In this document: positions 5,674 through 23,283 of the stretch, piece by piece
Numbering within the stretch: position 1 is the first letter of the stretch
How the letters are laid out: every line of letters starts with the position of its first letter
IMG/VR virus record: IMGVR_UViG_3300048803_000071
Span: 1-64,000 of that record
Length of the DNA stretch: 64,000 bases
Reading direction: 5' to 3' (one strand)
Source of the DNA: a virus
Lineage: Duplodnaviria; Caudoviricetes
The notes under the pieces: model-generated
Database searches by the model: none
What the model saw: the letters and a program-made list of their open reading frames with translations, nothing else
Told to the model about the DNA's origin: nothing
Position numbers and translations under genes: made by a program

Positions 5674-6699
5674 TTATTTCTCCTTTTTAGGTTTTTGTTT
5701 ATATTTATCTTTTATTATTTCTACTGCTTCTCTTAGTTTGTACTTGTAATGTGTTTGATCTATTCTCCCGCTGTAAAATAGTTCAAAAGCTTCTTTGTAT
5801 ATTTTTATTATATTGCTGATTTTTTTTGTTGCTTCTCCGTTTTTAAATGAATCTGTATATTCTTTGTATACCATCTGAGCCTGCGGCATATTAATTTTAT
5901 ATTCTTCTGCAATAACTTTAATTTTACTCATATATATCTGTTGTTTTTCGGATGCCTTATAGTTTTTTCTCTTCTCTTCTTTTCTTAATATTCTTATGTT
6001 TTTCTGAATAAGAGGAGTATTTAAAATGACTTCGGTAGATAATTTCTTTAGAATCCTCGCTTTAATGTTCTGTTGGAAATTATAAGAGTAATTTGTGTTG
6101 TGCAAAGCATCTATTTTCGCAAGTTCTTCAAATGCGGATACTAGCATTGCTTCTGTGTTAATTGCTTGCTCTTGAACTTCTACTCCTTTCATAAGTAGTT
6201 TTACTTCGTTTTGCCTGAGTTTGTAGTATTCAATTCTTATCGTTTCGTCAGTTTGCTGAAATTTTATGATGTCTTTGATGTTCACATCCATTTGAAACAT
6301 ATTCGATATTAACTCTTTTATTTCATCTGAGCTGTCTTTTTTTAATAATAAATCTTTTACTTTTTCAAAATATGTTAATATCAAATTTATTTTTCTATAA
6401 CCGGCCTGATTGTCTTTCGAATATTTTGCAATTGTTAAATCGTATTCCTGAATGGCTGCTCTTATCTGATTTACAATATCATATCCTTCTATAAACGTTG
6501 GTCGTATTTTCCATCTCTTTATATCTACTAAAATTCTGTCAATAGATATTCTGGGTAATCCGTTCGGATTATTACCGTAAAGGTTGGATATTTCTTCTAC
6601 TTTAAGTTGATAGTCCCATATATAACTTTTTAAGGTTTCTTCGTCATACCTTGTTGGCGGTGGTGCCTGTGGGATTTCTAATATGTTTGTTTCGCTCAT
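5674..6699 (-). CDS. Hypothetical helical protein (possibly DNA-binding or small-terminase-like)
   Basis: 341 aa, helical, basic C-terminus; no decisive motif. Confidence 0.3.
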   Translation of the reverse strand: MSETNILEIPQAPPPTRYDEETLKSYIWDYQLKVEEISNLYGNNPNGLPRISIDRILVDIKRWKIRPTFIEGYDIVNQIRAAIQEYDLTIAKYSKDNQAGYRKINLILTYFEKVKDLLLKKDSSDEIKELISNMFQMDVNIKDIIKFQQTDETIRIEYYKLRQNEVKLLMKGVEVQEQAINTEAMLVSAFEELAKIDALHNTNYSYNFQQNIKARILKKLSTEVILNTPLIQKNIRILRKEEKRKNYKASEKQQIYMSKIKVIAEEYKINMPQAQMVYKEYTDSFKNGEATKKISNIIKIYKEAFELFYSGRIDQTHYKYKLREAVEIIKDKYKQKPKKEK

Positions 6700-6732
6700 A
6701 ATTTTTATTTTTTTTACTGACTACTACTGTTC

Positions 6733-7524
6733 TCAATATGTTGGTTTTGGTTCTACCCCTTCTTCTACATTTTTCTTTAATGAAAAAGCTGTTCCTTCAT
6801 TTATTGTTCCTTCACAATCTGAGTTTTTCATCACGTATGTTCCCCCTGTCATTCCGGCTGCAAGTGTTAATGATGCTCCATCCGTCCCCAGGATATTATC
6901 AACATTTGTGATGAAAAGTTTATTGTTGTTTCCCGATACACTTATTGCACTCCAGTGCTCACAATTATGTATTAAAACCGTTGAGCCTCCGGACTGTAGG
7001 AAGTTCCCGGAAACCTTGGAACAATTTATAAAGACCGCTACTCCGCCTGTAATAGAGATGTTGTTGGAGAATTTAACGTTTTCGAATATGTGTACACCGG
7101 TACTTAATATTATGTTTCCGCTGATTATTGAGGTGTCTTTTTGTATCCCCCTGAAAACAACATAACCATCATGGTTTAATGTCAGTGCTTCTCCGTAACT
7201 TGTTGTCTTTGCCCTTATTTCAATTAGTGCTTTATCTGTAGAAGAAGAACCATCCGTTATAACACCAGCATAAGCATCCGATACCTTGCTAAAATAAGGT
7301 TTATTAAGAGAGCTGTAATTTTCTCCTACCATATAATGCTTCTGCGGTAATAAAGCAATCGCTGCGTCTTTTAGGTATTTATGAATATTGTCTAAAAAAT
7401 ATTGTTTGTTCGCATTCGTTCCGTTTAAATCCCCTTCATATTCAGCATCTATTATAGCTACTAAATCTGCAAGGTTTGTTGTTGCCGCATATACTAAATT
7501 AGATGTAGATGTAGGTGTAGTCAT
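6733..7524 (-). CDS. Structural protein with short beta-helix
   Basis: FSKVSDA...LIEIRA beta-helix cap followed by repeats; downstream of baseplate J. Confidence 0.5.
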   Translation of the reverse strand: MTTPTSTSNLVYAATTNLADLVAIIDAEYEGDLNGTNANKQYFLDNIHKYLKDAAIALLPQKHYMVGENYSSLNKPYFSKVSDAYAGVITDGSSSTDKALIEIRAKTTSYGEALTLNHDGYVVFRGIQKDTSIISGNIILSTGVHIFENVKFSNNISITGGVAVFINCSKVSGNFLQSGGSTVLIHNCEHWSAISVSGNNNKLFITNVDNILGTDGASLTLAAGMTGGTYVMKNSDCEGTINEGTAFSLKKNVEEGVEPKPTY

Positions 7525-12763: not shown

Positions 12764-15715
12764 TTAAAATCTCTCACAGAAAAATACATGAAAATGATTA
12801 AAATGGTCTCCGTATACACCACCGACACTTCTTACCCTTTCTCTTAAATCACAAGGATAATAACGTTGATAACTTTCTTTTTGCCAATTAGTTTTATCCC
12901 GATTTTCTATTTTATCATGCCTAAATAACACTCCCTGCCCGGATTCCCGGATTCCGATGTCATTTATTAATACATCTAAAACGTGAACTATATCTGTTAC
13001 TGTTTTATCCGATGTATTCCCTTGACTATTATGTTTTGCTGTTGATACTAAACCTGTAATTACAATATCTGCAGAAGCCCCGTCATTGTGGGTTTCGTGA
13101 CCGCTTAAAGCTACCCATCCGTCATTATAACCGCTCATATCTCCTACTTGAACATTTTGCCCTGTTATATTATGTACCTGCTCAGCCCAGGTTAATAATC
13201 TTTCCATAGTTAATTCATATCCCCATTGCCTGTCATCCGATTTAAAAGATGTTACATATTTATGCCGGTTATCAGTAGGTTTGTATTTTGATAATTGAAC
13301 CGCTTTCCCTCTGTCCCCTGTTACTTTTTTGACATTGAGGTTTTCTTTCTTTTCTTCAACTTTTACAGGTGTTTCACTTTCATCACCATTATAAGGGAAT
13401 GAAGGATCAAATATTTTAATATTATTACAAATGGTTTTTGTGTATTCCTTACCTTCTGAACTGTCGAGTGAATAATTTACTCCTAAATGATATGTTCTTA
13501 AGGCTGTCAATGGGTTATCGCCATAATTGTATTCATTTTTTAGAATATTACATATACCCTTTATTGCAGATTCGGGGTCTAATCTGTCTCCGTATTTACT
13601 GCTGAAATTTTCTGTTATTCCGCATAATCCTGCTTTTACGCCGCTTTTATAGTTAGGATTAAAATTACTTTCCGTTAATATTATGCCTAATATGACGTAT
13701 GGATTTATACCATTAGCAACTGCCTGAATTATATCTGCAAGTTCATAAGCGGTATTTACATTGTGTTTTTTATAATCTGATTCATATGTATTATAATAAT
13801 TTTTTAATTTATCTTGTGCTTCTTTTAATAATTCTCCGGTATTCCATTTTCCACCCGAGCTGTATCCGCCGATTGTGGTCCCGATTCCCGTTGCATAATC
13901 TATTTTTATCATTGGATTTTTTCTTACTGTTCCGCCTGCTGATTCCTCGCTTATGCCTTTATCAGATAGATCATATCCCGCTGAATATTTGTATTGTTCC
14001 ATCTCTTCGGTATTTTCACCCCTGTCTAAATTAAGTGACATTTCGTAAATATTTCCATCTTCTGTTACTTCGTATTTTCTTCTTACTCCTTTTATATAAT
14101 AAAATATTCCCTGTCTGCCGGTCTTTGAAAGATGGTGCGGAGCAAATATTTTATCCCCCTTCCTTATATAATCATGCCCTAACATTAATTGCTCACCTTT
14201 ATAGAATGTCGGATTAAACCGGTACCAATGGAAGAGTTTCTCTCTCAGCCGTATTGATTCTTCAACAGGATAAGCCACTTCATTGTATATGTTTTTTTTA
14301 ATGATTCTATAACTGTCGGGTATCTCATCTAAGCCTATTGATAAAGTTCCTTCTTTATACATCTTACTTTTACCTTCTAATTTCCGGATTCCAAACTTTC
14401 TGATCGATAATGTATCGAGCAATGGATACATATAGCCGTATCTCGCAAGTGCTGTCGTGCTGGTGATATCTTTCGAGGAAGTCATAGTATAAAAATTAAC
14501 AACATCTGTAAGTGTCTGTCCTATCGAATTTCCATAGTCCTCTCCCGGGTCTAATGTGTGATATGGTTTCTTTGTGATTAATGTTTGGAATATACTTTTA
14601 TCCTTATACTTTAATCCTTCAATATTTATTTTGCTTGTAATTGGCTTGTCGTTATCCCACCAGTTTCCCACTCTTTCCTTTTTCTTTTCGTCCGGTAAAG
14701 ATACTATCCAAACGTCTGCTTCCGATGCTTCTACCTTTTTATGAACTTTTTCAAAATCAAATGCATCAAGTGGGGGATTTATTAAATTTAATATTGTGTT
14801 GAATATATTATCATTTGTCGTTGATAAATCTCCGTTTTCATTTAATAAATTCCAATCTGATGTTCTGTCAAAAGGTTTTGGTCTAACTATTAAGCAAGGT
14901 CTTAGTTTGTTTATTTTTTTATCTATGATTGTTTCTACAAAGCATTCGTAAAACATCGGATCTATGCATTGAGTAATATAATTCCATACTTTGCCTGAAA
15001 ATTGTGACAGATTATCATCATATAATAAATCGTTCCAATAACAGGATAAATCAAAAGTAAAATACCTGCCTATTGCGAAGTGATTTTTTTCTTCCAAATG
15101 CTCCGCTATAACATTTCCTTTTTCATCAAAATCTATATATGGTATTTCTATGTTCATCGCCGGCATATTAAGCATAATCCAGATAATAGCACTTAATGGA
15201 CATTGTTTTTTAAATTCTGAAAAACCGTCGTTTCCAAAGCCCCTTAATATCCCTAAAAATTGTACTCTGTTTTCTCCTAATAATTCAACAGCCCTTGGAT
15301 CATAAGCTAGCTCAGGAGCCATAACTATATCATCATCTATTAATAGAGATGCAAAATTTCTGCCGCTCAATAGAAGTGCTCTTGCTATTCCTTTCTCGGT
15401 TGCTTTTTTTGTTTCGAATATTGTATCTATTCTGAATAGCCAGCTGTCTTTTTGCTCGATGCCTATCGAAAGTATATCACCTTTGCTTAATACCCTTCTC
15501 CACATAGAATATATTCTTACGCTGTTATATGAAGGCTGCTGGTCTATTGCATGCGGTAAAATGGTAAGCTGAAAAGTGTCTGCAGGCTGGTCCAAATCCC
15601 CGGAATCCGAATAATTAATTACATAATCACTAAGATCATATGGCTGCCCGTTGATTGTCTTATTGATTACATAAACTTTTGCTCGATGTGATGTGTATCC
15701 CGGCCTGTTTATCAT
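12764..15715 (-). CDS. Baseplate hub/tail lysin with SLT and MepA-like endopeptidase domains
   Basis: Hub N-terminus (DLSDYV, LLLSGR); SLT motifs IILTESNFNP, GLCGI and YHLG; LAS/M74 motifs VGDMS, GHETHNDGASAD and HFNHFHV. Confidence 0.85.
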   Translation of the reverse strand: MINRPGYTSHRAKVYVINKTINGQPYDLSDYVINYSDSGDLDQPADTFQLTILPHAIDQQPSYNSVRIYSMWRRVLSKGDILSIGIEQKDSWLFRIDTIFETKKATEKGIARALLLSGRNFASLLIDDDIVMAPELAYDPRAVELLGENRVQFLGILRGFGNDGFSEFKKQCPLSAIIWIMLNMPAMNIEIPYIDFDEKGNVIAEHLEEKNHFAIGRYFTFDLSCYWNDLLYDDNLSQFSGKVWNYITQCIDPMFYECFVETIIDKKINKLRPCLIVRPKPFDRTSDWNLLNENGDLSTTNDNIFNTILNLINPPLDAFDFEKVHKKVEASEADVWIVSLPDEKKKERVGNWWDNDKPITSKINIEGLKYKDKSIFQTLITKKPYHTLDPGEDYGNSIGQTLTDVVNFYTMTSSKDITSTTALARYGYMYPLLDTLSIRKFGIRKLEGKSKMYKEGTLSIGLDEIPDSYRIIKKNIYNEVAYPVEESIRLREKLFHWYRFNPTFYKGEQLMLGHDYIRKGDKIFAPHHLSKTGRQGIFYYIKGVRRKYEVTEDGNIYEMSLNLDRGENTEEMEQYKYSAGYDLSDKGISEESAGGTVRKNPMIKIDYATGIGTTIGGYSSGGKWNTGELLKEAQDKLKNYYNTYESDYKKHNVNTAYELADIIQAVANGINPYVILGIILTESNFNPNYKSGVKAGLCGITENFSSKYGDRLDPESAIKGICNILKNEYNYGDNPLTALRTYHLGVNYSLDSSEGKEYTKTICNNIKIFDPSFPYNGDESETPVKVEEKKENLNVKKVTGDRGKAVQLSKYKPTDNRHKYVTSFKSDDRQWGYELTMERLLTWAEQVHNITGQNVQVGDMSGYNDGWVALSGHETHNDGASADIVITGLVSTAKHNSQGNTSDKTVTDIVHVLDVLINDIGIRESGQGVLFRHDKIENRDKTNWQKESYQRYYPCDLRERVRSVGGVYGDHFNHFHVFFCERF

Positions 15716-15726
15716 TTTATATTTTT

Positions 15727-18339
15727 TTATCCATTATTTATATAAGCCGTCGTTTGAATTTCCGATAATATTTTTTCTTTCAATTCTTGTAATCCTAAAT
15801 CTAATTTTTCAGTTAATTCTTTTCCGTTAATATTGATTGTTACTTTATTATCAAAGTTAAAACCATTCATATTTTCTCCGTGTGGTATTGGATGTTTAAA
15901 AGTATCATATATATCTTCCCATCTTCCTTTGTTACCTTGCAGCATTTCTTTTAACATATCCCATAATCTTTGTTCAGCTTTTTTACCGGAAAATAACCCG
16001 TATAAATCTCTTTGTTGTGTTCCTTCAACTCCTAATTCGTCAAATTTATATTTATTAAGTTTGACTCCCTTAACTTCGAATATACTCGGGTCTATTTCGA
16101 AATATCTATTTTCCCCCATAGGCAAATATATGTTTTTTCCTTTTTTTTCTTCTGTGCTAACAGTTCTTACACCTTTCTTTAATTCTCCGTTTTCTTTTAA
16201 TTGACCCATCATATTATTAGGATCGTTTTCCCAGTTATATAATAAATTCTGCCAAAACTCTTTCACATCCGTTTTTTCTTGTCCTTCTTTCTTTTCTTCA
16301 GTAAGATCATCCAATAGTTTACTCATATCTTTAAGGCCGCCTGTTACAGCATCTACAACTTCTTTTATTTTTTTAGGAAATAAATCATTGTAAAACTCTT
16401 CTGTATAACTTTGTATAGACCATATATCTTTTGCGATTTTCCCGCCTGTGCTCATCATCCAGTTCATAATTTCCGCATGGTGTTTATCTGCTTGCGATGT
16501 GTTTTTCCCTCCTATACCAACTAGTTCTTCAAGCTTCTTTTTCTGCTCTTCGCTGTCAGGTGCTAAATCTTTCGTGTTTTCGTCGATGTATCGTAACCAT
16601 TCATCCAATCCTTCCCCGTATCCCTCTATTGATTTGTCTTTATTGAAGTTGTAAGCTTTATCGATAACTTGTTTAGCTAATTGCGGACTCTCTATTCCTA
16701 ATCCTTGCATTGCAAAGAATGTTCTTTGTTCATCACCAAAGCCCTGTAATCCCTTGAATAATTTACTCCGTACGTCTTTATCGTAAATTCCCCTCTCTTT
16801 TTGCAGTTCAAATTCCATAAGACTTTTTGGCTTTAAAGCACTCATTAAAAATGCATCACCTGCGGAACCCGGTGCTTGATTGAACATCCCTTGTAATCCG
16901 GATAGTGTCCATTGTCCCATATCTCCCATTCTGCCTTTTGCTGTATCTCCGTATAAAGCAAATGGTAGAAATGATGTTTCTAATAAATTCCTCTCGCTTA
17001 CTTTCATTCCGGATTTTGTCATAACTACCGATAGTTGATTCATAGCGTTTATTAAATCACCCATCCTTGCATTCATTCCGGTTACGTTTGATAATCCACG
17101 TCTCGATTGAAGCTCTGCCGCTCCTACTTCTTCTCCTGTATAACGGGTTGCTACTGATGCCTGGAATATCTCCTGCGGATTGTAACCGTAACCCCTTGAG
17201 AATGCAAGTTGCCCTTTAAATGTGTCCTCTTTGTATTTTCCTGTAATTGCGGATTGTTGATATTGTAATTGATATAATTCAGAATCCGAATAGCCTAATC
17301 CTCTTCCTGTTACCCCACCCATTCCGAATCGTGCCTTTGCTATTGCCCGGCTTCGGTCATATTCTTCGTATACGGCTACTCTCTGTTCCATTTCAGGGTA
17401 CATCTGCATCATTAGTTGATTAGATTGTTTCTGTGGTAATTGAGCCTTTATTAGTTCGGATTCTTTAGTTGAACCAATTAAATTTCCTATCCCTCCTCCC
17501 AATGCTCCCATTATCATTGAACCTATTGCAAATCCGGGTAAACCGCCGCCTAATGCTAATCCGCCTAAACCGCCTATCATTCCTAATCCTAACTGTCCGA
17601 ATGTTTGATATGCCTGTTTCTTTAACATCATATCTCTCATTTCATTAGCCATCCTTGTCTCTGAAATAACAGCTGCGTTTTGTACGAGATTTGAAACATT
17701 AAAACCTAAACCCGTCGCCTGCTGTTTTTGTGCAGATATAAGTTGGTATTCTGATGCATAAGCTCCTATGCTTGTTATTGCCTGTGCGATTAATCCTGCT
17801 GCTATGTATTTTCCTATAATAGACATGCTGCTTTTTGTTTCCGGATTATTCTTTACTATGTTTTGAGATGCTACATCTACTCCGGATATCATATGTCCGT
17901 AAGTTCTGTCAAATGCCTCTCTCCCTGCTTCAGATGGTATACCTTGCCTTACAGCTTCATCTTGCCAGTGGGCCCGTTGCTCTGACCATGTTTTTAATAA
18001 TTTTGGTGAAACCTTCGTTAATTGTTCGCTGAACATTTTTTCTATCTGGGGAGTTGATGCAGCATTTACTCCGTATAAAGCTCCCTGGAATTCTTCAAAT
18101 GCTTTTTGTAACCTCGGATCTTTAGATAATCCTTTAATAAATTGTGATAGGTTTTCAGGTGTTTGCTTTGATGCGAAAGGTGTGACCGTTTGAGGAGTCC
18201 CGGTGCCGCTTCCACCACTCGTTACTCCTCCTAAGTCTTGGTTTACGTCTTTTACCGCTTGGCGAAACTCGTTCACCTGCCTTGTTGCTCCGGTTAGTTC
18301 ACTCGCATTTGCTCTTAGATTAAACTCTAAATCTGCCAT
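15727..18339 (-). CDS. Tail tape measure protein
   Basis: ~870 aa, helical, with Gly-rich hydrophobic stretch (GGLGGLALGGG...); lies between chaperone and hub; probable start MADLEF. Confidence 0.85.
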   Translation of the reverse strand: MADLEFNLRANASELTGATRQVNEFRQAVKDVNQDLGGVTSGGSGTGTPQTVTPFASKQTPENLSQFIKGLSKDPRLQKAFEEFQGALYGVNAASTPQIEKMFSEQLTKVSPKLLKTWSEQRAHWQDEAVRQGIPSEAGREAFDRTYGHMISGVDVASQNIVKNNPETKSSMSIIGKYIAAGLIAQAITSIGAYASEYQLISAQKQQATGLGFNVSNLVQNAAVISETRMANEMRDMMLKKQAYQTFGQLGLGMIGGLGGLALGGGLPGFAIGSMIMGALGGGIGNLIGSTKESELIKAQLPQKQSNQLMMQMYPEMEQRVAVYEEYDRSRAIAKARFGMGGVTGRGLGYSDSELYQLQYQQSAITGKYKEDTFKGQLAFSRGYGYNPQEIFQASVATRYTGEEVGAAELQSRRGLSNVTGMNARMGDLINAMNQLSVVMTKSGMKVSERNLLETSFLPFALYGDTAKGRMGDMGQWTLSGLQGMFNQAPGSAGDAFLMSALKPKSLMEFELQKERGIYDKDVRSKLFKGLQGFGDEQRTFFAMQGLGIESPQLAKQVIDKAYNFNKDKSIEGYGEGLDEWLRYIDENTKDLAPDSEEQKKKLEELVGIGGKNTSQADKHHAEIMNWMMSTGGKIAKDIWSIQSYTEEFYNDLFPKKIKEVVDAVTGGLKDMSKLLDDLTEEKKEGQEKTDVKEFWQNLLYNWENDPNNMMGQLKENGELKKGVRTVSTEEKKGKNIYLPMGENRYFEIDPSIFEVKGVKLNKYKFDELGVEGTQQRDLYGLFSGKKAEQRLWDMLKEMLQGNKGRWEDIYDTFKHPIPHGENMNGFNFDNKVTININGKELTEKLDLGLQELKEKILSEIQTTAYINNG

Positions 18340-19676
18340 TCCCATCTCCAATTATTTCTAAAATATTTATCAATTATTTTAACCGATATACTCCCCAATC
18401 CTTCAATTATAACTCTCGTACCCTTACAATGTGTACTCTTTGCAATATATTCTTTACCTTTAATCCAAACAGAATCTAAAGGTTGTATATTATATCTCTG
18501 TTTTCTTATTGAAGGTTTAAACCCTTTTCTACTTACTTGCAATTTTCTATTGTTTCTGTGCTTTTGTATTACCCAAAAAGGTCTACATCTTTCTTGAATT
18601 TCACCTCCTGCTATACAAAATGCATCATTAAAATGTTCTTTACTTAATCCTAATTTTATTCTTTTAACGAATGTCTGATAACCATAAGCAATCTTACATT
18701 TCATATCTTTTAAAAATCTGTTTTTGATTATATTCATAAATGTAGATTCTTTGTATTGCTTGTTCTTTTTTAACAAATGTAATAAATTTTCTTTATGGAT
18801 TTTATCGTGACATTCTTTATGAAGTAAGGCAAGATTATCAACAGAATTTGTACCACCCTTTGATTCTTTAATTATATGATGTATGTGCCAGCTGTTATTT
18901 TTATCATATTCTTTTTGACAAAATTGACATTTACCATGTTCCCTCGAGATTAAATATGAACGTACATTTTGATAGCCATAAAGATTCCCTTGCTGATATT
19001 CTATTCCTTGAATTTCCGGATTTTTAATCTTTTGAATGTCAAAATTTCCCGATTCAACAACGGTTTCTGAAATTGGTAAAATTTTCTCCAATCTTTTTAT
19101 CAGATTTAAATGTGTATCATATCTTCGCTGAATTGATGGTGGTAACCATCCTTCTTTTTTTACTCGATTCAACCATCTTGCTTCTCGATACCAATGATGT
19201 CTATTCCTTCTCCCTCTTCTATGTATTCTTTTTTCTGTTAATCTTTTTGATGTTTTATCATCTAATTTTAATTCACCTGAAATCAATTCTTTCTTTTCAG
19301 ATATGCAAGAAAAACCAATATATTTATATCCTGAATCAATTCCACAGGTTACATCCTGTGTTTTTTCTTCACAATCAAAATTTAATTGGATTGCGAAGGG
19401 AACACGTTTAATTACTTTTGCTCTGCCTCCTTTTAATAGTTTACGTGCTTTTGCCGGTTTGCATGGCATTAAAGGTTTCCCTGATTTTGCTATTACAAAC
19501 ACATTGACTTTACGTCCCACTGTTTGTTGTGGTTGATCCACTTCGAGGTTGTTACAATCCAGAACTTTATCTGCAACACTAAGACTTTGGTCTTTGTTTA
19601 ATTGCAAATTCGTAGAGCAAAGGACTTGTGGAGTATCCCTTGGTACGCTCTTAATCTCTAATTGTAACTTCTGCAT
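18327..19676 (-). CDS. iscB: RNA-guided endonuclease IscB
   Basis: PLMP domain; RuvC-I GIDSG; Arg-rich bridge helix; RuvC-II VVESGNFD; HNH (HHI...N...H); RuvC-III HFNDA; all catalytic residues present. True start may be GTG at 19502. Confidence 0.95.
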   Translation of the reverse strand: MQKLQLEIKSVPRDTPQVLCSTNLQLNKDQSLSVADKVLDCNNLEVDQPQQTVGRKVNVFVIAKSGKPLMPCKPAKARKLLKGGRAKVIKRVPFAIQLNFDCEEKTQDVTCGIDSGYKYIGFSCISEKKELISGELKLDDKTSKRLTEKRIHRRGRRNRHHWYREARWLNRVKKEGWLPPSIQRRYDTHLNLIKRLEKILPISETVVESGNFDIQKIKNPEIQGIEYQQGNLYGYQNVRSYLISREHGKCQFCQKEYDKNNSWHIHHIIKESKGGTNSVDNLALLHKECHDKIHKENLLHLLKKNKQYKESTFMNIIKNRFLKDMKCKIAYGYQTFVKRIKLGLSKEHFNDAFCIAGGEIQERCRPFWVIQKHRNNRKLQVSRKGFKPSIRKQRYNIQPLDSVWIKGKEYIAKSTHCKGTRVIIEGLGSISVKIIDKYFRNNWRWEWQI

Positions 19677-19747
19677 AAATTTTTCTTTTTTAATTTAAGC
19701 CCTCTAATCAGCTCTTTTTAATTCGACTGATTCACTTGTCTCGTTGC
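19503..19747 (-). ncRNA. omegaRNA (scaffold ~19503-19731 plus predicted 16-nt guide 19732-19747)
   Basis: ~230 nt directly 5' of the PLMP domain; ATCAG...CTGATTAGAGGGC 5' stem and omegaRNA-like internal motifs; boundaries inferred. Confidence 0.8.
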
Positions 19748-20644
19748 CACTTTCTTCTTATATCTTTTGTTTCTTCTTCGAACATTTTTCTTCTTGTAAT
19801 CTGTATTGATCTTACTGTGTCAATATCACTTATAAATTTTTGGTTTTCATACGATTTTCTTAATTGTTCCTCTTCTTCTTTCGCTTCTTTTACATCGGCG
19901 TCTGTTGAATAGTTTTCTTTACAATTCAAAATTGCATGTGCTTCTTCTTTTAGTTCATTTTCAAATTGCTCAGCTGTAAGGGAACTTTCACCGGCGGGTA
20001 GTCTTTCTTCGAATACTTCTCTTAAACTTGCTAATCTTATTAATAAGTAATCTTTGAATATCTCTGGTTTCGTTGCTTTTAAATAGCGTTCATCTGTTAA
20101 AGGTAATTTATAATAATCTCTCCAATAGTTTACTATGCTTTTCGATTCTAAATATTCATCGGATAATTCTTCGGATAACTCGATATTCTCATTATTAAAA
20201 TCAATGTCGTGTAATTCATTTATTAGTTGTAGTAGTTTTTCTTTTTTTGACGTTTCGAAAAAATTGACTAACCGCTACCTCGTGAGCGGCTTGGATTTCT
20301 TTTAGTTCCTCTTCCGTTATTTCTGAAAGAACTTTTGGTTTTCTTGTCCCTAATACTTTTATTGTTGCATATGTCTCACATTTCTTCATTAAATTATTAC
20401 AGCCGGATACTAATGCTATATCATAAGAATCGTTTATGCTTTGGATTTTTATTTCTCCGTTTTCTCCGGGCTTAAGCCTTTGATATATTTTTAATATATC
20501 CTGCCGTGCTCGTTCAAGCGGGACTATACCACCGTATAGTCCCGCTAAAGTAGATTCGATTCGTCGTTTTTCAAGGAAAGTTGGTTCTGCAATAATTTCG
20601 AACTCTCCAATCCCTTTAACGTCGAAAGTTATTGTTTCTCTCAT
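19732..20644 (-). CDS. Tail assembly chaperone GT (programmed frameshift product)
   Basis: Frame 19732-20274 is stop-free, has no ATG before its conserved motif, and overlaps the end of G at TTT TTT CGA (20255-20263); contains YWRDYYKLPLTDERYL. Confidence 0.75.
20216..20644 (-). CDS. Tail assembly chaperone G
   Basis: Between tube and tape measure genes; ends ...QFFRN at the slippery site. Confidence 0.75.
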   Translation of the reverse strand: MRETITFDVKGIGEFEIIAEPTFLEKRRIESTLAGLYGGIVPLERARQDILKIYQRLKPGENGEIKIQSINDSYDIALVSGCNNLMKKCETYATIKVLGTRKPKVLSEITEEELKEIQAAHEVAVSQFFRNVKKRKTTTTNK

Positions 20645-20653
20645 GATATCCCT

Positions 20654-21238
20654 TTAAGGTGTCCCCGCTGATGATACCATATCAACTTCTGAAACATCAC
20701 CCGGATAGAATGCCATTGGATTCATAAGCTTCCAGTCTTTGCCCGTTAATCTGTATCTGTACATACCTCTGAGCGATTCCATTACTATGCCATTAGGTGA
20801 CATTGTTGAACCTCTTCCGGCAAACCGCGCTCCATACCAGGAATTTAATACCATACCCGGTGTTGGTGTGTCCTGTCCTGCACTTTGTATGAGCGTAAGC
20901 TCTGTTTCCCAGGCTAAGGTTTTGACCGTTGGTAAACTGTCATTCAGCCTTAATGTATACATCGCTTGACAGTCAAAACTTCCCATTTCCTGCATTCCTA
21001 ATAATAATTCTTGAATGAAATAGGTGTCCCATTCAAGTACCGGTAATATTTGATAGTTTTCCTGGTAATTGAAGTTCTGTCCTCGGGCTACTAAATTCTT
21101 TGGATCTACATCTGAAGGTAATGATACTCCCCGGGTGAATAAGACCTTTAATGCATTACCGACGAAAGATTTTGTATAAGTTGGATGGTTGATATCCCCT
21201 TTATAATAAGATCCCTTTCTGTTAAATGTTATTTTCAT
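20654..21238 (-). CDS. Tail tube protein
   Basis: Immediately downstream of sheath; 194 aa, beta-rich. Confidence 0.75.
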   Translation of the reverse strand: MKITFNRKGSYYKGDINHPTYTKSFVGNALKVLFTRGVSLPSDVDPKNLVARGQNFNYQENYQILPVLEWDTYFIQELLLGMQEMGSFDCQAMYTLRLNDSLPTVKTLAWETELTLIQSAGQDTPTPGMVLNSWYGARFAGRGSTMSPNGIVMESLRGMYRYRLTGKDWKLMNPMAFYPGDVSEVDMVSSAGTP

Positions 21239-21330: not shown

Positions 21331-23283
21331 TTACGCTATCACCGCCCCTGTGACCACATAATTCTCTATACCTATGAAGTCGGTTACATCCGGTAATACA
21401 ATTTCCGTTTTGATTAAGAAGCCTAATTCCACCTTCTTAATCTCTTTAAATCTTATCGTAATTACATATCCGGCTTCGATGTAAGCTGAAGCACTTGCAT
21501 TTAAAAATCCTATTACATCATTGAGAGTTACTCTGTCATTACCTATTAATGCTTCATCGAGACCTTCCATTATTCCAACGTGGAAATAATCCGCCAACCC
21601 TCTTTGTTGAATTAAATATGTCATTTTATCGGCTTCGTTCCATTCGTGACTGTGGTCCTGATAAGTGTTTATTCCCTGTGAAATTTTAATTCCATATTTT
21701 CCTTTTATCGCTAACATGACTCCGTTTTTTGTACAGTATGCTATTTCCGTATCGGTTAATTCACCCTCTAAACTCGATGCTATCACCCTGTCTCTGGTTA
21801 GATTGTGAGTTACGGGATTTGCAAGCATAGCTCCGAATACCTGCGGTGCAAAGGATAAATATGAAGGTTTATCGTCAAATCCAATTGCCGGTAATATTAC
21901 CTGGTCTGAATTTAGGTTCTTCGCTCGTGTAACCCATTGTGCCGGTGTCTCTCCGGCTGCTGTCCCCGCTACTATTTGTAATGGCTGTTTGTACTCATTC
22001 CCTTTCATTAATGTTGCTAAAGCATCGAATGCACTGTGAATTGCAGTATCGGAGGTTGCAAGATTTATTACTCTTATATTTATTTTATGTTCATATAAAA
22101 AATCTTTCCTCCAATCAGGGAAAAGTCCTGCGATTGCTAAATAATCCGTTGAACTAACTGCCGGTGTTGTACCCAATGTTGCCGTTCCTATTTCTGAAAA
22201 ATAATCACTTGAAAAAGCTGCCGGTGTTGTAGTCGCTGCTGTATGTATCGCAAATATTAATTCATCTTGATATTCATTTAATTTGTGAACTATCGTTTCT
22301 AAATCCCATTCGGCAAATGTAAAATCAACAGTTGTTTCTTTACTTGTATCTGATTGGATTAATCTTGCATAGTTTGCCTTGGTAACTGTTGCGCCGACTA
22401 TTGCAGTTTCTATTAATACTTTATATCCTCCAACTGTTGAATTATATGTGGTATTTATAAAGGTTATTGTAACTGATGTTAATTTCCCGTCTGCTGATGT
22501 CATTAAATCAAATACGTTTCCTACTGAAATACCCTCTATACTGTCTATCCATAAAAAATTTTGTCCGGCTATTGCGTTTGCAGCTATCATTTTTTCATTC
22601 TTTGTAGGAATAAATGAAAATGTAAATAATGGCTGAACAATCTGGTATCCCGAATCTGTCGAGGGATTTACTGTCCAGGTTGCAACAGTTAAAGCAGTTG
22701 CTGTATTGTCTGTTATTTTCCTTGTCTGCCCTATTCCTGTCCCGCTGACTATTTTTACCCATTTCCCTATTAATGCATCGATAGTCCATGTGGCTCCGGA
22801 ATCTGTTAAAGATGTTGCTCCTCCGGCCGTCGCTGTTCCGGAATCGATGACCGTTTGTTCATCACCACCTGCGGCTTCTGTTAATCCTAACTTTATATCA
22901 TTACCAAATACACCATAGTTTTTAAGTGAAGCCTCTACATCTAAAACTATGGCTGCAGAACCATTTACAACCCCTGTTGATGCTTTTGTTGTAGGTTGTG
23001 CGTTTAATACAAATATTGCCCCAGCTCCTAATTTCTGAGCCTCTTTGAAGTTGTTGTATATATCATCATATCCGTAATCCGCAGCTACTGCCCCGGGATT
23101 ATCATATAAACACATAACTTCACTTCCTTTTTCGGATGCATTATAAGGTGTTCCTTTCGGTGACTTCCCTATAATTAATCCTACATTAAAATCCGGTAAA
23201 TTAGCACCGGCTTGTTGTATAACTCCCAGAAGTCCAACTACTCCTGGTACGTCGTAAGTTTTACCATTAAATTGAAATCCCAT
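21331..23283 (-). CDS. Tail sheath protein
   Basis: FNGKTYDVPGV N-terminus, NYGVFGNDI, KISQGINTY and DFI C-terminal sheath motifs. Confidence 0.9.
   Translation of the reverse strand: MGFQFNGKTYDVPGVVGLLGVIQQAGANLPDFNVGLIIGKSPKGTPYNASEKGSEVMCLYDNPGAVAADYGYDDIYNNFKEAQKLGAGAIFVLNAQPTTKASTGVVNGSAAIVLDVEASLKNYGVFGNDIKLGLTEAAGGDEQTVIDSGTATAGGATSLTDSGATWTIDALIGKWVKIVSGTGIGQTRKITDNTATALTVATWTVNPSTDSGYQIVQPLFTFSFIPTKNEKMIAANAIAGQNFLWIDSIEGISVGNVFDLMTSADGKLTSVTITFINTTYNSTVGGYKVLIETAIVGATVTKANYARLIQSDTSKETTVDFTFAEWDLETIVHKLNEYQDELIFAIHTAATTTPAAFSSDYFSEIGTATLGTTPAVSSTDYLAIAGLFPDWRKDFLYEHKINIRVINLATSDTAIHSAFDALATLMKGNEYKQPLQIVAGTAAGETPAQWVTRAKNLNSDQVILPAIGFDDKPSYLSFAPQVFGAMLANPVTHNLTRDRVIASSLEGELTDTEIAYCTKNGVMLAIKGKYGIKISQGINTYQDHSHEWNEADKMTYLIQQRGLADYFHVGIMEGLDEALIGNDRVTLNDVIGFLNASASAYIEAGYVITIRFKEIKKVELGFLIKTEIVLPDVTDFIGIENYVVTGAVIA
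22681..22848 (-). repeat. 168-bp segment duplicated at 24355-24522
   Basis: Ungapped alignment, 141/168 identical by hand count; encodes IDSGT...WTIDALIGKWVKI...RKITDNTAT domain. Confidence 0.95.

Follow-up and report, generated by a model that had tools for sequence, protein, structure and literature searches.

The window analysed here, that is the first 64 kb (64,000 nts) of the 92.8-kb provirus record IMGVR_UViG_3300048803_000071 of IMG/VR, carries an IscB-omegaRNA unit within the tail genes of a phage of the Caudoviricetes. On the minus strand, the unit lies between the end of a frame that probably encodes the T part of a tail assembly chaperone pair (19732..20274) and the gene of a probable 870-aa tape-measure protein (TMP; 15727..18339). 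It consists of a 16-nt guide (19732..19747), an omegaRNA scaffold (19532..19731) and an IscB open reading frame (ORF; 18327..19676), all on the minus strand, and its guide recurs at the beginning of the TMP gene with differences that are silent in the TMP frame. As the following suggests, the unit has probably been immobilised and may be directed at the TMP alleles of rival phages.

Both the IscB and its omegaRNA are confirmed, at the level of their sequences, as real and intact. The protein has the split RuvC domain with an inserted HNH and the N-terminal PLMP/RRXRR region by which IscB is recognised. It matches the RRXRR profile (PF14239, 2.2e-63 over the full profile), the HNH profile (PF01844, 3.3e-12) and the solved structures of OgeuIscB (PDB 7utn and 7xht, E 5e-45 to 2e-44), and its closest IscB relative, P0006, is 71% identical. 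The first-pass annotation of this DNA had described the RuvC and HNH residues as intact, and D114, E208, H266, H267, N281, H290, H348 and D351 are indeed invariant columns in a 46-member clade alignment including the window protein; the motifs GIDSG, ESGNFD, HIHH and HFNDAF can be read in its sequence. Directly upstream of iscB, on the same strand and with the guide at its 5′ end, as is typical of IscB, the structured omegaRNA aligns with the full length of the HEARO model (Rfam RF02033, model positions 1-211) from 19731 to 19532. The score of this alignment (77 bits, E 9.3e-16) is below the curated gathering score of 83 because the hairpins nested in the P1 stem have been deleted. The model starts at the same [G/A]TCA in all relatives and, since it aligns from 19731, the guide should be 19747-19732, which places the boundary between guide and scaffold exactly where it had been drawn earlier. 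The IscB ORF is called with 449 aa from an ATG at 19676, while the start of the conserved protein lies near 19517. In the called ORF, ~53 codons precede this point (19517-19676, minus strand); they overlap the omegaRNA, and their apparent conservation across the 46 clade members is probably due to conservation of the RNA rather than to translation.

The guide, GCAACGAGACAAGTGA, is identical at 13 of 16 positions to GCAACAAGGCAGGTGA (18273..18288, minus strand), which comprises TMP codons 18-22 plus 1 nt. A scripted check reproduced the coordinates and letters given in the first-pass annotation: the mismatches, at guide positions 6, 9 and 12, are all third codon positions and all synonymous in the TMP frame, A-T-R-Q-V, and the next four bases are ACGA (18269..18272, minus strand; codons AAC GAG), one silent transition from ATGA. 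Three of the five silent sites within the 16 nts already differ. The similarity ends at guide length, as had also been claimed, with 15/51 identical positions upstream and 17/60 downstream; these values correspond to background, so that a duplication still visible past the guide was ruled out in the window. What had been missed is that the guide is at the same time the last 16 nts of the chaperone T frame, including its TGA stop, where it reads W-Q-R-D-K-stop and where the three differences are non-synonymous (R>Q, D>G and K>R). This points to an ordinary insertion into an overlap between the chaperone and TMP genes, with the TMP 5′ end rebuilt.

Such an overlap is found in IscB-less genomes. 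In the contigs L002 and L003, which belong to the TMP relative P0002 described below, the chaperone T frame and the TMP gene are adjacent and even overlapping. The T frame of L002 overlaps TMP by 41 nts and its stop overlaps the Val codon of RKVKEF, a peptide that aligns with RQVNEF of the window TMP as its best local partner (p 0.024). By this measure, in an IscB-less ancestor of the window phage the last 16 nts of the chaperone would be nts 52-67 of the TMP gene. The proposal that the L002 T stop and the alternative-frame TGA in the window TMP share a frame was rejected (+2 vs +1), and it is in position alone that the two agree.

The unit has been stripped of both transposon ends, since the P1 hairpins are gone and iscB runs into the TMP start codon. 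In the window omegaRNA, the P1 stem (ATCAG...CTGAT) encloses a bare 15-nt loop; the two hairpins nested there, which are hairpins of the insertion sequence (IS) end, are kept in 15/15 relatives examined, and one of them is of the type that also marks the far end in these relatives. On the other side, the C-terminus of IscB is conserved to its end, and its last 4 codons plus stop overlap the TMP start codon, leaving no room for a transposon end; the relatives have a tnpA gene or at least 50 nts behind iscB. The Y1 transposase TnpA (PF01797) was not found in the 92.8-kb record, which covers about 56% of the virus, the control genomes being positive, and the record contains one IscB copy. All eight occurrences of this phage in metagenomes (8/8) are identical and occupied by IscB. 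Judged by the marks of a mobile IS200/IS605 element that it fails to show (TnpA, subterminal hairpins, and several copies or vacant sites), the unit is apparently no longer able to transpose. It had been called domesticated; the transposon ends are lost, yet the unit looks selfish and not host-serving, so that the term is not borne out. In more distant relatives, clostridial and other (38-46% identity; L006, L008, L009, L010 and L012-L016), iscB is followed directly by an ORF that, from its translated sequence, looks like a Y1 tnpA, which would make this a rare autonomous form. At their far end, which terminates in ..TTATAAA, there is a hairpin similar to that nested in P1; this end is so different that the target-adjacent motif (TAM) of the window IscB was not deduced from theirs.

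A second, independent phage has the same arrangement. Loci were retrieved for the nearest IscB proteins, which are 57-59% identical, and each of the six belongs to a phage-like operon of densely packed genes that run in one direction. In one of them, L034 (ENA contig k119_200393; 3894-3922 and 5366-5435), an IscB 59% identical to that of the window has the same layout. The L034 guide, ATATCAGCGTGAAATG, has a 13/16 copy, TTACCAACGTGAAATG, located 50 nts into the next gene and followed by ATTA. The copy is in frame (Y-Q-R-E-M), is a silent variant of the guide and occupies codons 17-22 of this gene; in both L034 and the window, it begins at codon 17/18 of the downstream gene. In L034, 12 nts separate iscB from the next ATG, which means that there is no far end, while the nested P1 hairpins are kept. 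The downstream gene encodes a 245-aa protein with a native N-terminus, 12/12 members of its family beginning with MLDKKFLKKVTETFGVVYQREMMIEEC.

Target alleles are available for L034. Seven contigs (L040-L046), representing three distinct IscB-less relatives, have ATATCAACGTGAAATG followed by ATGA at that site, 15/16 identical to the L034 guide with an rG:dT wobble as the single difference, and in these contigs the upstream gene and the target gene are 4-18 nts apart. In L034 itself, M23I is the sole deviation in the block YQREMMIEEC, for which the other 11 members of the family show no variation; it is this replacement that gives ATTA, and no other change could destroy an ATGA overlapping a Met codon. 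Upstream of the L034 guide, where the gene would start in the vacant genomes, a short ORF, METIKYQREM, resembles E-T-(FG)-I-V-YQREM of the gene (24/27 with one 6-nt gap) and looks like the decayed original 5′ end of the target gene. The comparison suggests that in L034 IscB inserted between protospacer and ATGA inside a gene whose 5′ end was then rebuilt behind the cassette, that the guide would still fit the alleles of IscB-less phages, and that the resident allele has lost its putative TAM. To judge from these sequences, the layout of L034 is clearly not a product of chance and the architecture exists in this IscB clade, which speaks against chance in the window as well. A cassette-borne leader of 17 codons that would rebuild the downstream gene was ruled out by the native N-termini of the 12 members of the L034 family and of the window TMP compared with P0002. 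In IMG/VR, a perfect match to the L034 guide followed by ATGA occurs twice, in one unrelated gene with the peptide AEYQREMMNAVSD, which by eye looks terminase-like, no search having been run on it.

The TAM of the window IscB can be predicted from these data. GstIscB (ISGst5) has the TAM TTCAT, which is ATGAA in the IscB sense (PMC10055086). An ATGA motif destroyed in the window by the silent change AAT>AAC, as supposed in the first-pass annotation, would be consistent with the ATGA found at the target of L034, and because AAT>AAC is silent, the window TAM would have needed no amino-acid change.

Taken together with the guide, this leads to the following proposal. An ancestral unit would have inserted in the IS200/IS605 manner behind a 16-nt protospacer and before an ATGA TAM, at a site common to the 3′ end of the chaperone gene and the 5′ end of TMP, which overlapped there. 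The insertion would have split TMP and kept the chaperone whole, the latter because its TGA stop forms the last three bases of the guide. The TMP gene behind iscB now has its 5′ end in full, with a start codon, 17 codons, the protospacer copy with three silent differences, and ACGA, and this end would have been rebuilt downstream in a recoded and TAM-less form. During co-infection, the ribonucleoprotein would cut the GCAACGAGACAAGTGA-ATGA TMP alleles of IscB-less relatives and spare its own. Repair of the break from the IscB+ genome would copy in the cassette together with the resistant allele, and otherwise the rival would be lost. We consider it rather probable that the window holds such an immobilised IscB with a recoded, TAM-less TMP 5′ end, serving RNA-guided homing or rival killing. 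A homing or anti-sibling nuclease had been suggested in the first-pass annotation; the logic recurs in L034, with its IscB-less 15/16 alleles followed by ATGA, and for the window a susceptible allele did not come to light.

Several observations weigh against this proposal. The chief weakness, as far as the alignment tells, is that the 51 nts preceding the two copies are unshared: the chaperone 3′ end and the TMP 5′ end show no similarity past the 16 nts (15/51), and because the flanks share nothing, the proposal has to assume that a 67-nt duplication has changed to saturation or that the 5′ end was taken up from a different lineage. The perfect-match allele with TAM that had been expected in IscB-less relatives, that is GCAACGAGACAAGTGA followed by AAYGAR, was not found in IMG/VR, JGI metagenome contigs or GTDB genomes, and neither was an IscB-less sibling of this phage; every metagenome copy is 100% identical and has IscB. 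In metagenome, genome and viral contigs, there were 0 matches to the predicted allele GCAACGAGACAAGTGAAYGAR and 0 to any allele encoding GATRQVNEF(RQ), and in GTDB genomes 0 to the 22-mer of the chaperone end. The exact guide 16-mer has 7 matches in IMG/VR, all in unrelated genes, where it reads N-E-T-S-D/E. No RNA dataset is listed among the sequencing runs containing this sequence. Contigs of four peat runs, which agree with the window in sequence, contained no joint skipping IscB and no variant letters at the site, at a low depth that makes this no evidence of absence. The TAM of the window IscB, ATGA, is a predicted one, and self-protection may rest largely on it, since one of the three differences between guide and resident site is an rG:dT wobble. 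A scan for sigma-70-type promoters found nothing before the guide, with a consensus that may not be that of the host. Furthermore, the window was chosen because of the match, a bare 13/16 match is not significant and is common in this A/G-rich genome, and the architecture is rare, with L034 alone among 49 other distinct loci.

The last points bear on the possibility that the match is due to chance and that the unit is an ordinary non-autonomous IscB, with the chaperone end as its flank-derived guide and the vacant junction between chaperone and TMP as its target. This would agree with the rule of Meers et al. that the DNA flanking the element on the omegaRNA side serves as guide and that the TAM lies just beyond the opposite end (PMC10055086). 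Shuffled sequences are expected to give 0.55 matches of 13/16 per window, and a second one exists, GCAACGAAACCAGAGA at 20061-20076 (minus strand), a non-synonymous match within the T frame of the chaperone that is itself taken as chance. The local alignment score of the pair (17) is below the shuffle mean (18.2). Among 16-mers taken from this phage, 13% have a 13/16 match within ±2 kb, and among those of the locus, one in four does equally well within 7.6 kb. Relatives of the window IscB are frequent in viral contigs, with 131 stretches encoding a member of the clade, of which 80 were fetched (L047-L126, IMG/VR); among these loci, none of 48 distinct guides (0/48) is repeated in frame in the gene that follows. 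A tendency of guides in phage IscB loci to resemble neighbouring genes in general was not seen, 13 loci and these 48 further distinct guides giving background matches only. The missing perfect-match allele and the selection of the finding for its match also speak for chance. The picture changes when the synonymous pattern and its position are taken into account. A match that is synonymous in the frame of its target is found for 0.45% of control 16-mers within ±2 kb and for 1.8% over the whole 92.8-kb record, and one within the 620 nts behind a 1.39-kb gap, the geometry of the cassette, for 0.05%. In addition, L034 has the same layout with 15/16 plus ATGA in IscB-less relatives, a single silent change would turn the resident TAM position into ATGA, and targeting of a vacant junction requires a far end and its TAM, which are absent here. 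Because the architecture is seen in ~1 of 50-70 loci and chance look-alikes in 0.05-0.5% per locus, a real relation between guide and TMP site appears several times more likely than chance, even allowing for the way in which the window was selected. Chance with an ordinary insertion is thus an unlikely explanation, though one to be reckoned with.

Less likely still, but well above negligible, is that guide and TMP site do share an ancestral segment and that the unit has no targeting role at present but persists as a passenger, be it stranded, decaying or silent. The loss of both ends and of TnpA would fit such a fate, as would the HEARO score of 77 bits under a threshold of 83 and the lack of any known sibling target. 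On the other hand, the ORF is complete with all catalytic columns conserved, the scaffold aligns over the whole HEARO model, and the guide has kept to sequences synonymous for the TMP peptide while the preceding 51 nts lost all likeness, which is what selection on the guide would give. Likewise, the L034 guide was kept (15/16 to distant relatives) while the neighbouring remnant suffered deletions. Nuclease-dead relatives of TnpB act as RNA-guided repressors, and IscB could by analogy bind its own TMP gene at the mismatched site and repress tail length or late genes. All that speaks for this is that a site nearly matching the guide lies close by, where the following gene begins, and it seems very improbable: the nuclease residues are intact, two of the three mismatches of the site fall in its TAM-proximal half, the TAM position does not read ATGA, and in the case of L034 it is other genomes and not the resident one that offer the better match.

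RNA-guided homing or rival killing would depart from what is known of IscB in the way in which self is told from non-self. IscB cuts a guide-matched site next to a TAM, and in IS200/IS605 elements this cut lets the element be copied back by recombination (PMC10055086). Like the IscB-omegaRNA systems GstIscB and OgeuIscB, the window unit has a protein of the RRXRR/RuvC plus HNH family, an upstream HEARO-type omegaRNA and a flank-derived 5′ guide, but it is without TnpA and end hairpins and has lost the hairpins nested in P1. What distinguishes self from non-self in the known elements is whether the element lies between protospacer and TAM; in the window, it would be base substitutions in a gene that both genomes possess. 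A 2026 review files OMEGA systems solely under discrimination by transposon presence or absence (PMC13565253), and no paper describing a phage IscB of this kind was found in the literature.

A closer functional likeness is offered by the free-standing homing endonucleases of T-even phages, SegF, SegG and Mob, and their ‘intronless homing’ (PMC13565253). There, as proposed here, a nuclease gene wedged between conserved genes cuts a conserved neighbouring gene in rivals, and sequence differences protect the resident allele, the outcome being co-conversion or marker exclusion. The T-even enzymes recognise DNA by protein contacts, whereas the window unit would use a 16-nt RNA guide and a TAM. As in these systems, the nuclease gene of the window lies between genes that are adjacent in relatives (L002/L003). 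At the sequence level, the resident site of the window differs by 3 silent mismatches and by ACGA in place of ATGA, which might make it resistant. A target in nuclease-less relatives is seen for L034 (L040-L046); none was found for the window, which is without close relatives. The L034 cassette shares with the window the IscB clade (59%), the missing far end, the in-frame near-copy of the guide in the next gene and the altered resident TAM position. It differs in its known target alleles, its retained nested P1 hairpins and the still visible remnant of a decayed 5′ end.

Engineered ‘home-and-rescue’ and ‘cleave-and-rescue’ drives are synthetic Cas9 constructs used in insects. They couple an RNA-guided nuclease that attacks an essential gene with a version of this gene that has been recoded and resists cleavage, an arrangement which the window unit would resemble, with the difference that it would be natural, phage-borne and IscB-based, its function being deduced from sequence. 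We see an even chance that some phage IscB-omegaRNA units have abandoned transposition and work as RNA-guided ‘home-and-rescue’ drives of natural origin. With about the same likelihood, the guide of such a unit might target an essential neighbour gene in rivals, in this phage the tape measure, while the carrier's recoded, TAM-less copy sits behind the nuclease; and the odds seem equally balanced that the unit would spread by break repair or kill competitors, with a few silent bases telling self from non-self.

IscB and TnpB cleave the empty site and in this way protect their transposon or help it to spread, and phage homing endonucleases act on rival alleles with a few base differences. An IscB without a transposon, telling alleles apart by silent substitutions, would, if confirmed, join both ideas. 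It would provide a route for RNA-guided nucleases out of transposons into conflict between genomes, as a step towards CRISPR-like roles, and a natural precedent for engineered cleave-and-rescue drives. It would also explain clusters of silent changes in phage structural genes beside such cassettes. Two natural sets of guide, target and TAM are in hand, that of L034 with alleles predicted to be susceptible and resistant.

Other members of the clade show further arrangements. Several units abut or overlap the start of the next gene, as in L036, where the stop overlaps the ATG as ATGA, and L037 and L038 may represent canonical insertions before an ATGA start codon. In L075 (5312-5337), a palindromic near-copy of the unit's own guide with 2 mismatches lies on the opposite strand in AT-rich DNA, ~430 nts behind iscB. 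The IscB of IMGVR_UViG_3300028045_000018 (L004/L059, 4302-4818; 54% identity) is located directly upstream of an array of five tRNA genes.

The record to which the window belongs is part of a 241-kb contig, and the same DNA is present in several peat metagenomes. The minus strand holds all the long ORFs of the window, and the tail genes are ordered as sheath (21331-23283), tube (20654-21238), a 142-aa ORF (20216..20644, minus strand), a start-less frame of 180 codons, the IscB unit, the 870-aa protein and a 983-aa protein (12764-15715, minus strand). The last, directly behind TMP, combines SLT transglycosylase and M74 murein endopeptidase domains and is probably a tail-associated lysin. The 870-aa protein, between the chaperones and the SLT/M74 protein, has a glycine-rich hydrophobic stretch and a native N-terminus, which aligns with that of P0002. 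This syntenic 822-aa protein is its sole relative among 5.8 billion proteins (31% identity over 680 aa) and is too distant (31% aa) to bear on the target site. IMG/VR and INPHARED contain no relatives of either TMP or the chaperone. Profile searches with Pfam and PHROG gave no match for the G/T chaperone pair or TMP, so that these assignments rest on synteny with L002 and L003, where the order is sheath (PF04984, weak), tube, a 139-aa ORF, a 132-aa ORF, TMP and an SLT protein, with no IscB.

From their arrangement, we read the 142-aa G-like ORF (ORF list and synteny with L002/L003) and the start-less frame as a G/G-T tail chaperone pair expressed through frameshifting and followed by TMP. The T frame, +1 relative to G, is open for 180 codons, and its first start codon occurs only at 19929, about 115 codons in. 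The frame begins in the terminal part of the preceding ORF, at an A7 run (20248-20242). It aligns with the corresponding frame of L002 (score 305), which has the same G/T layout (6328-7300) and a frame that also begins at an A run, CGAAAAAAC. The pair appears to shift by +1 (or -2), where the usual shift is -1, and a G+C-rich hairpin (20291-20270) lies just upstream of the A7 run.

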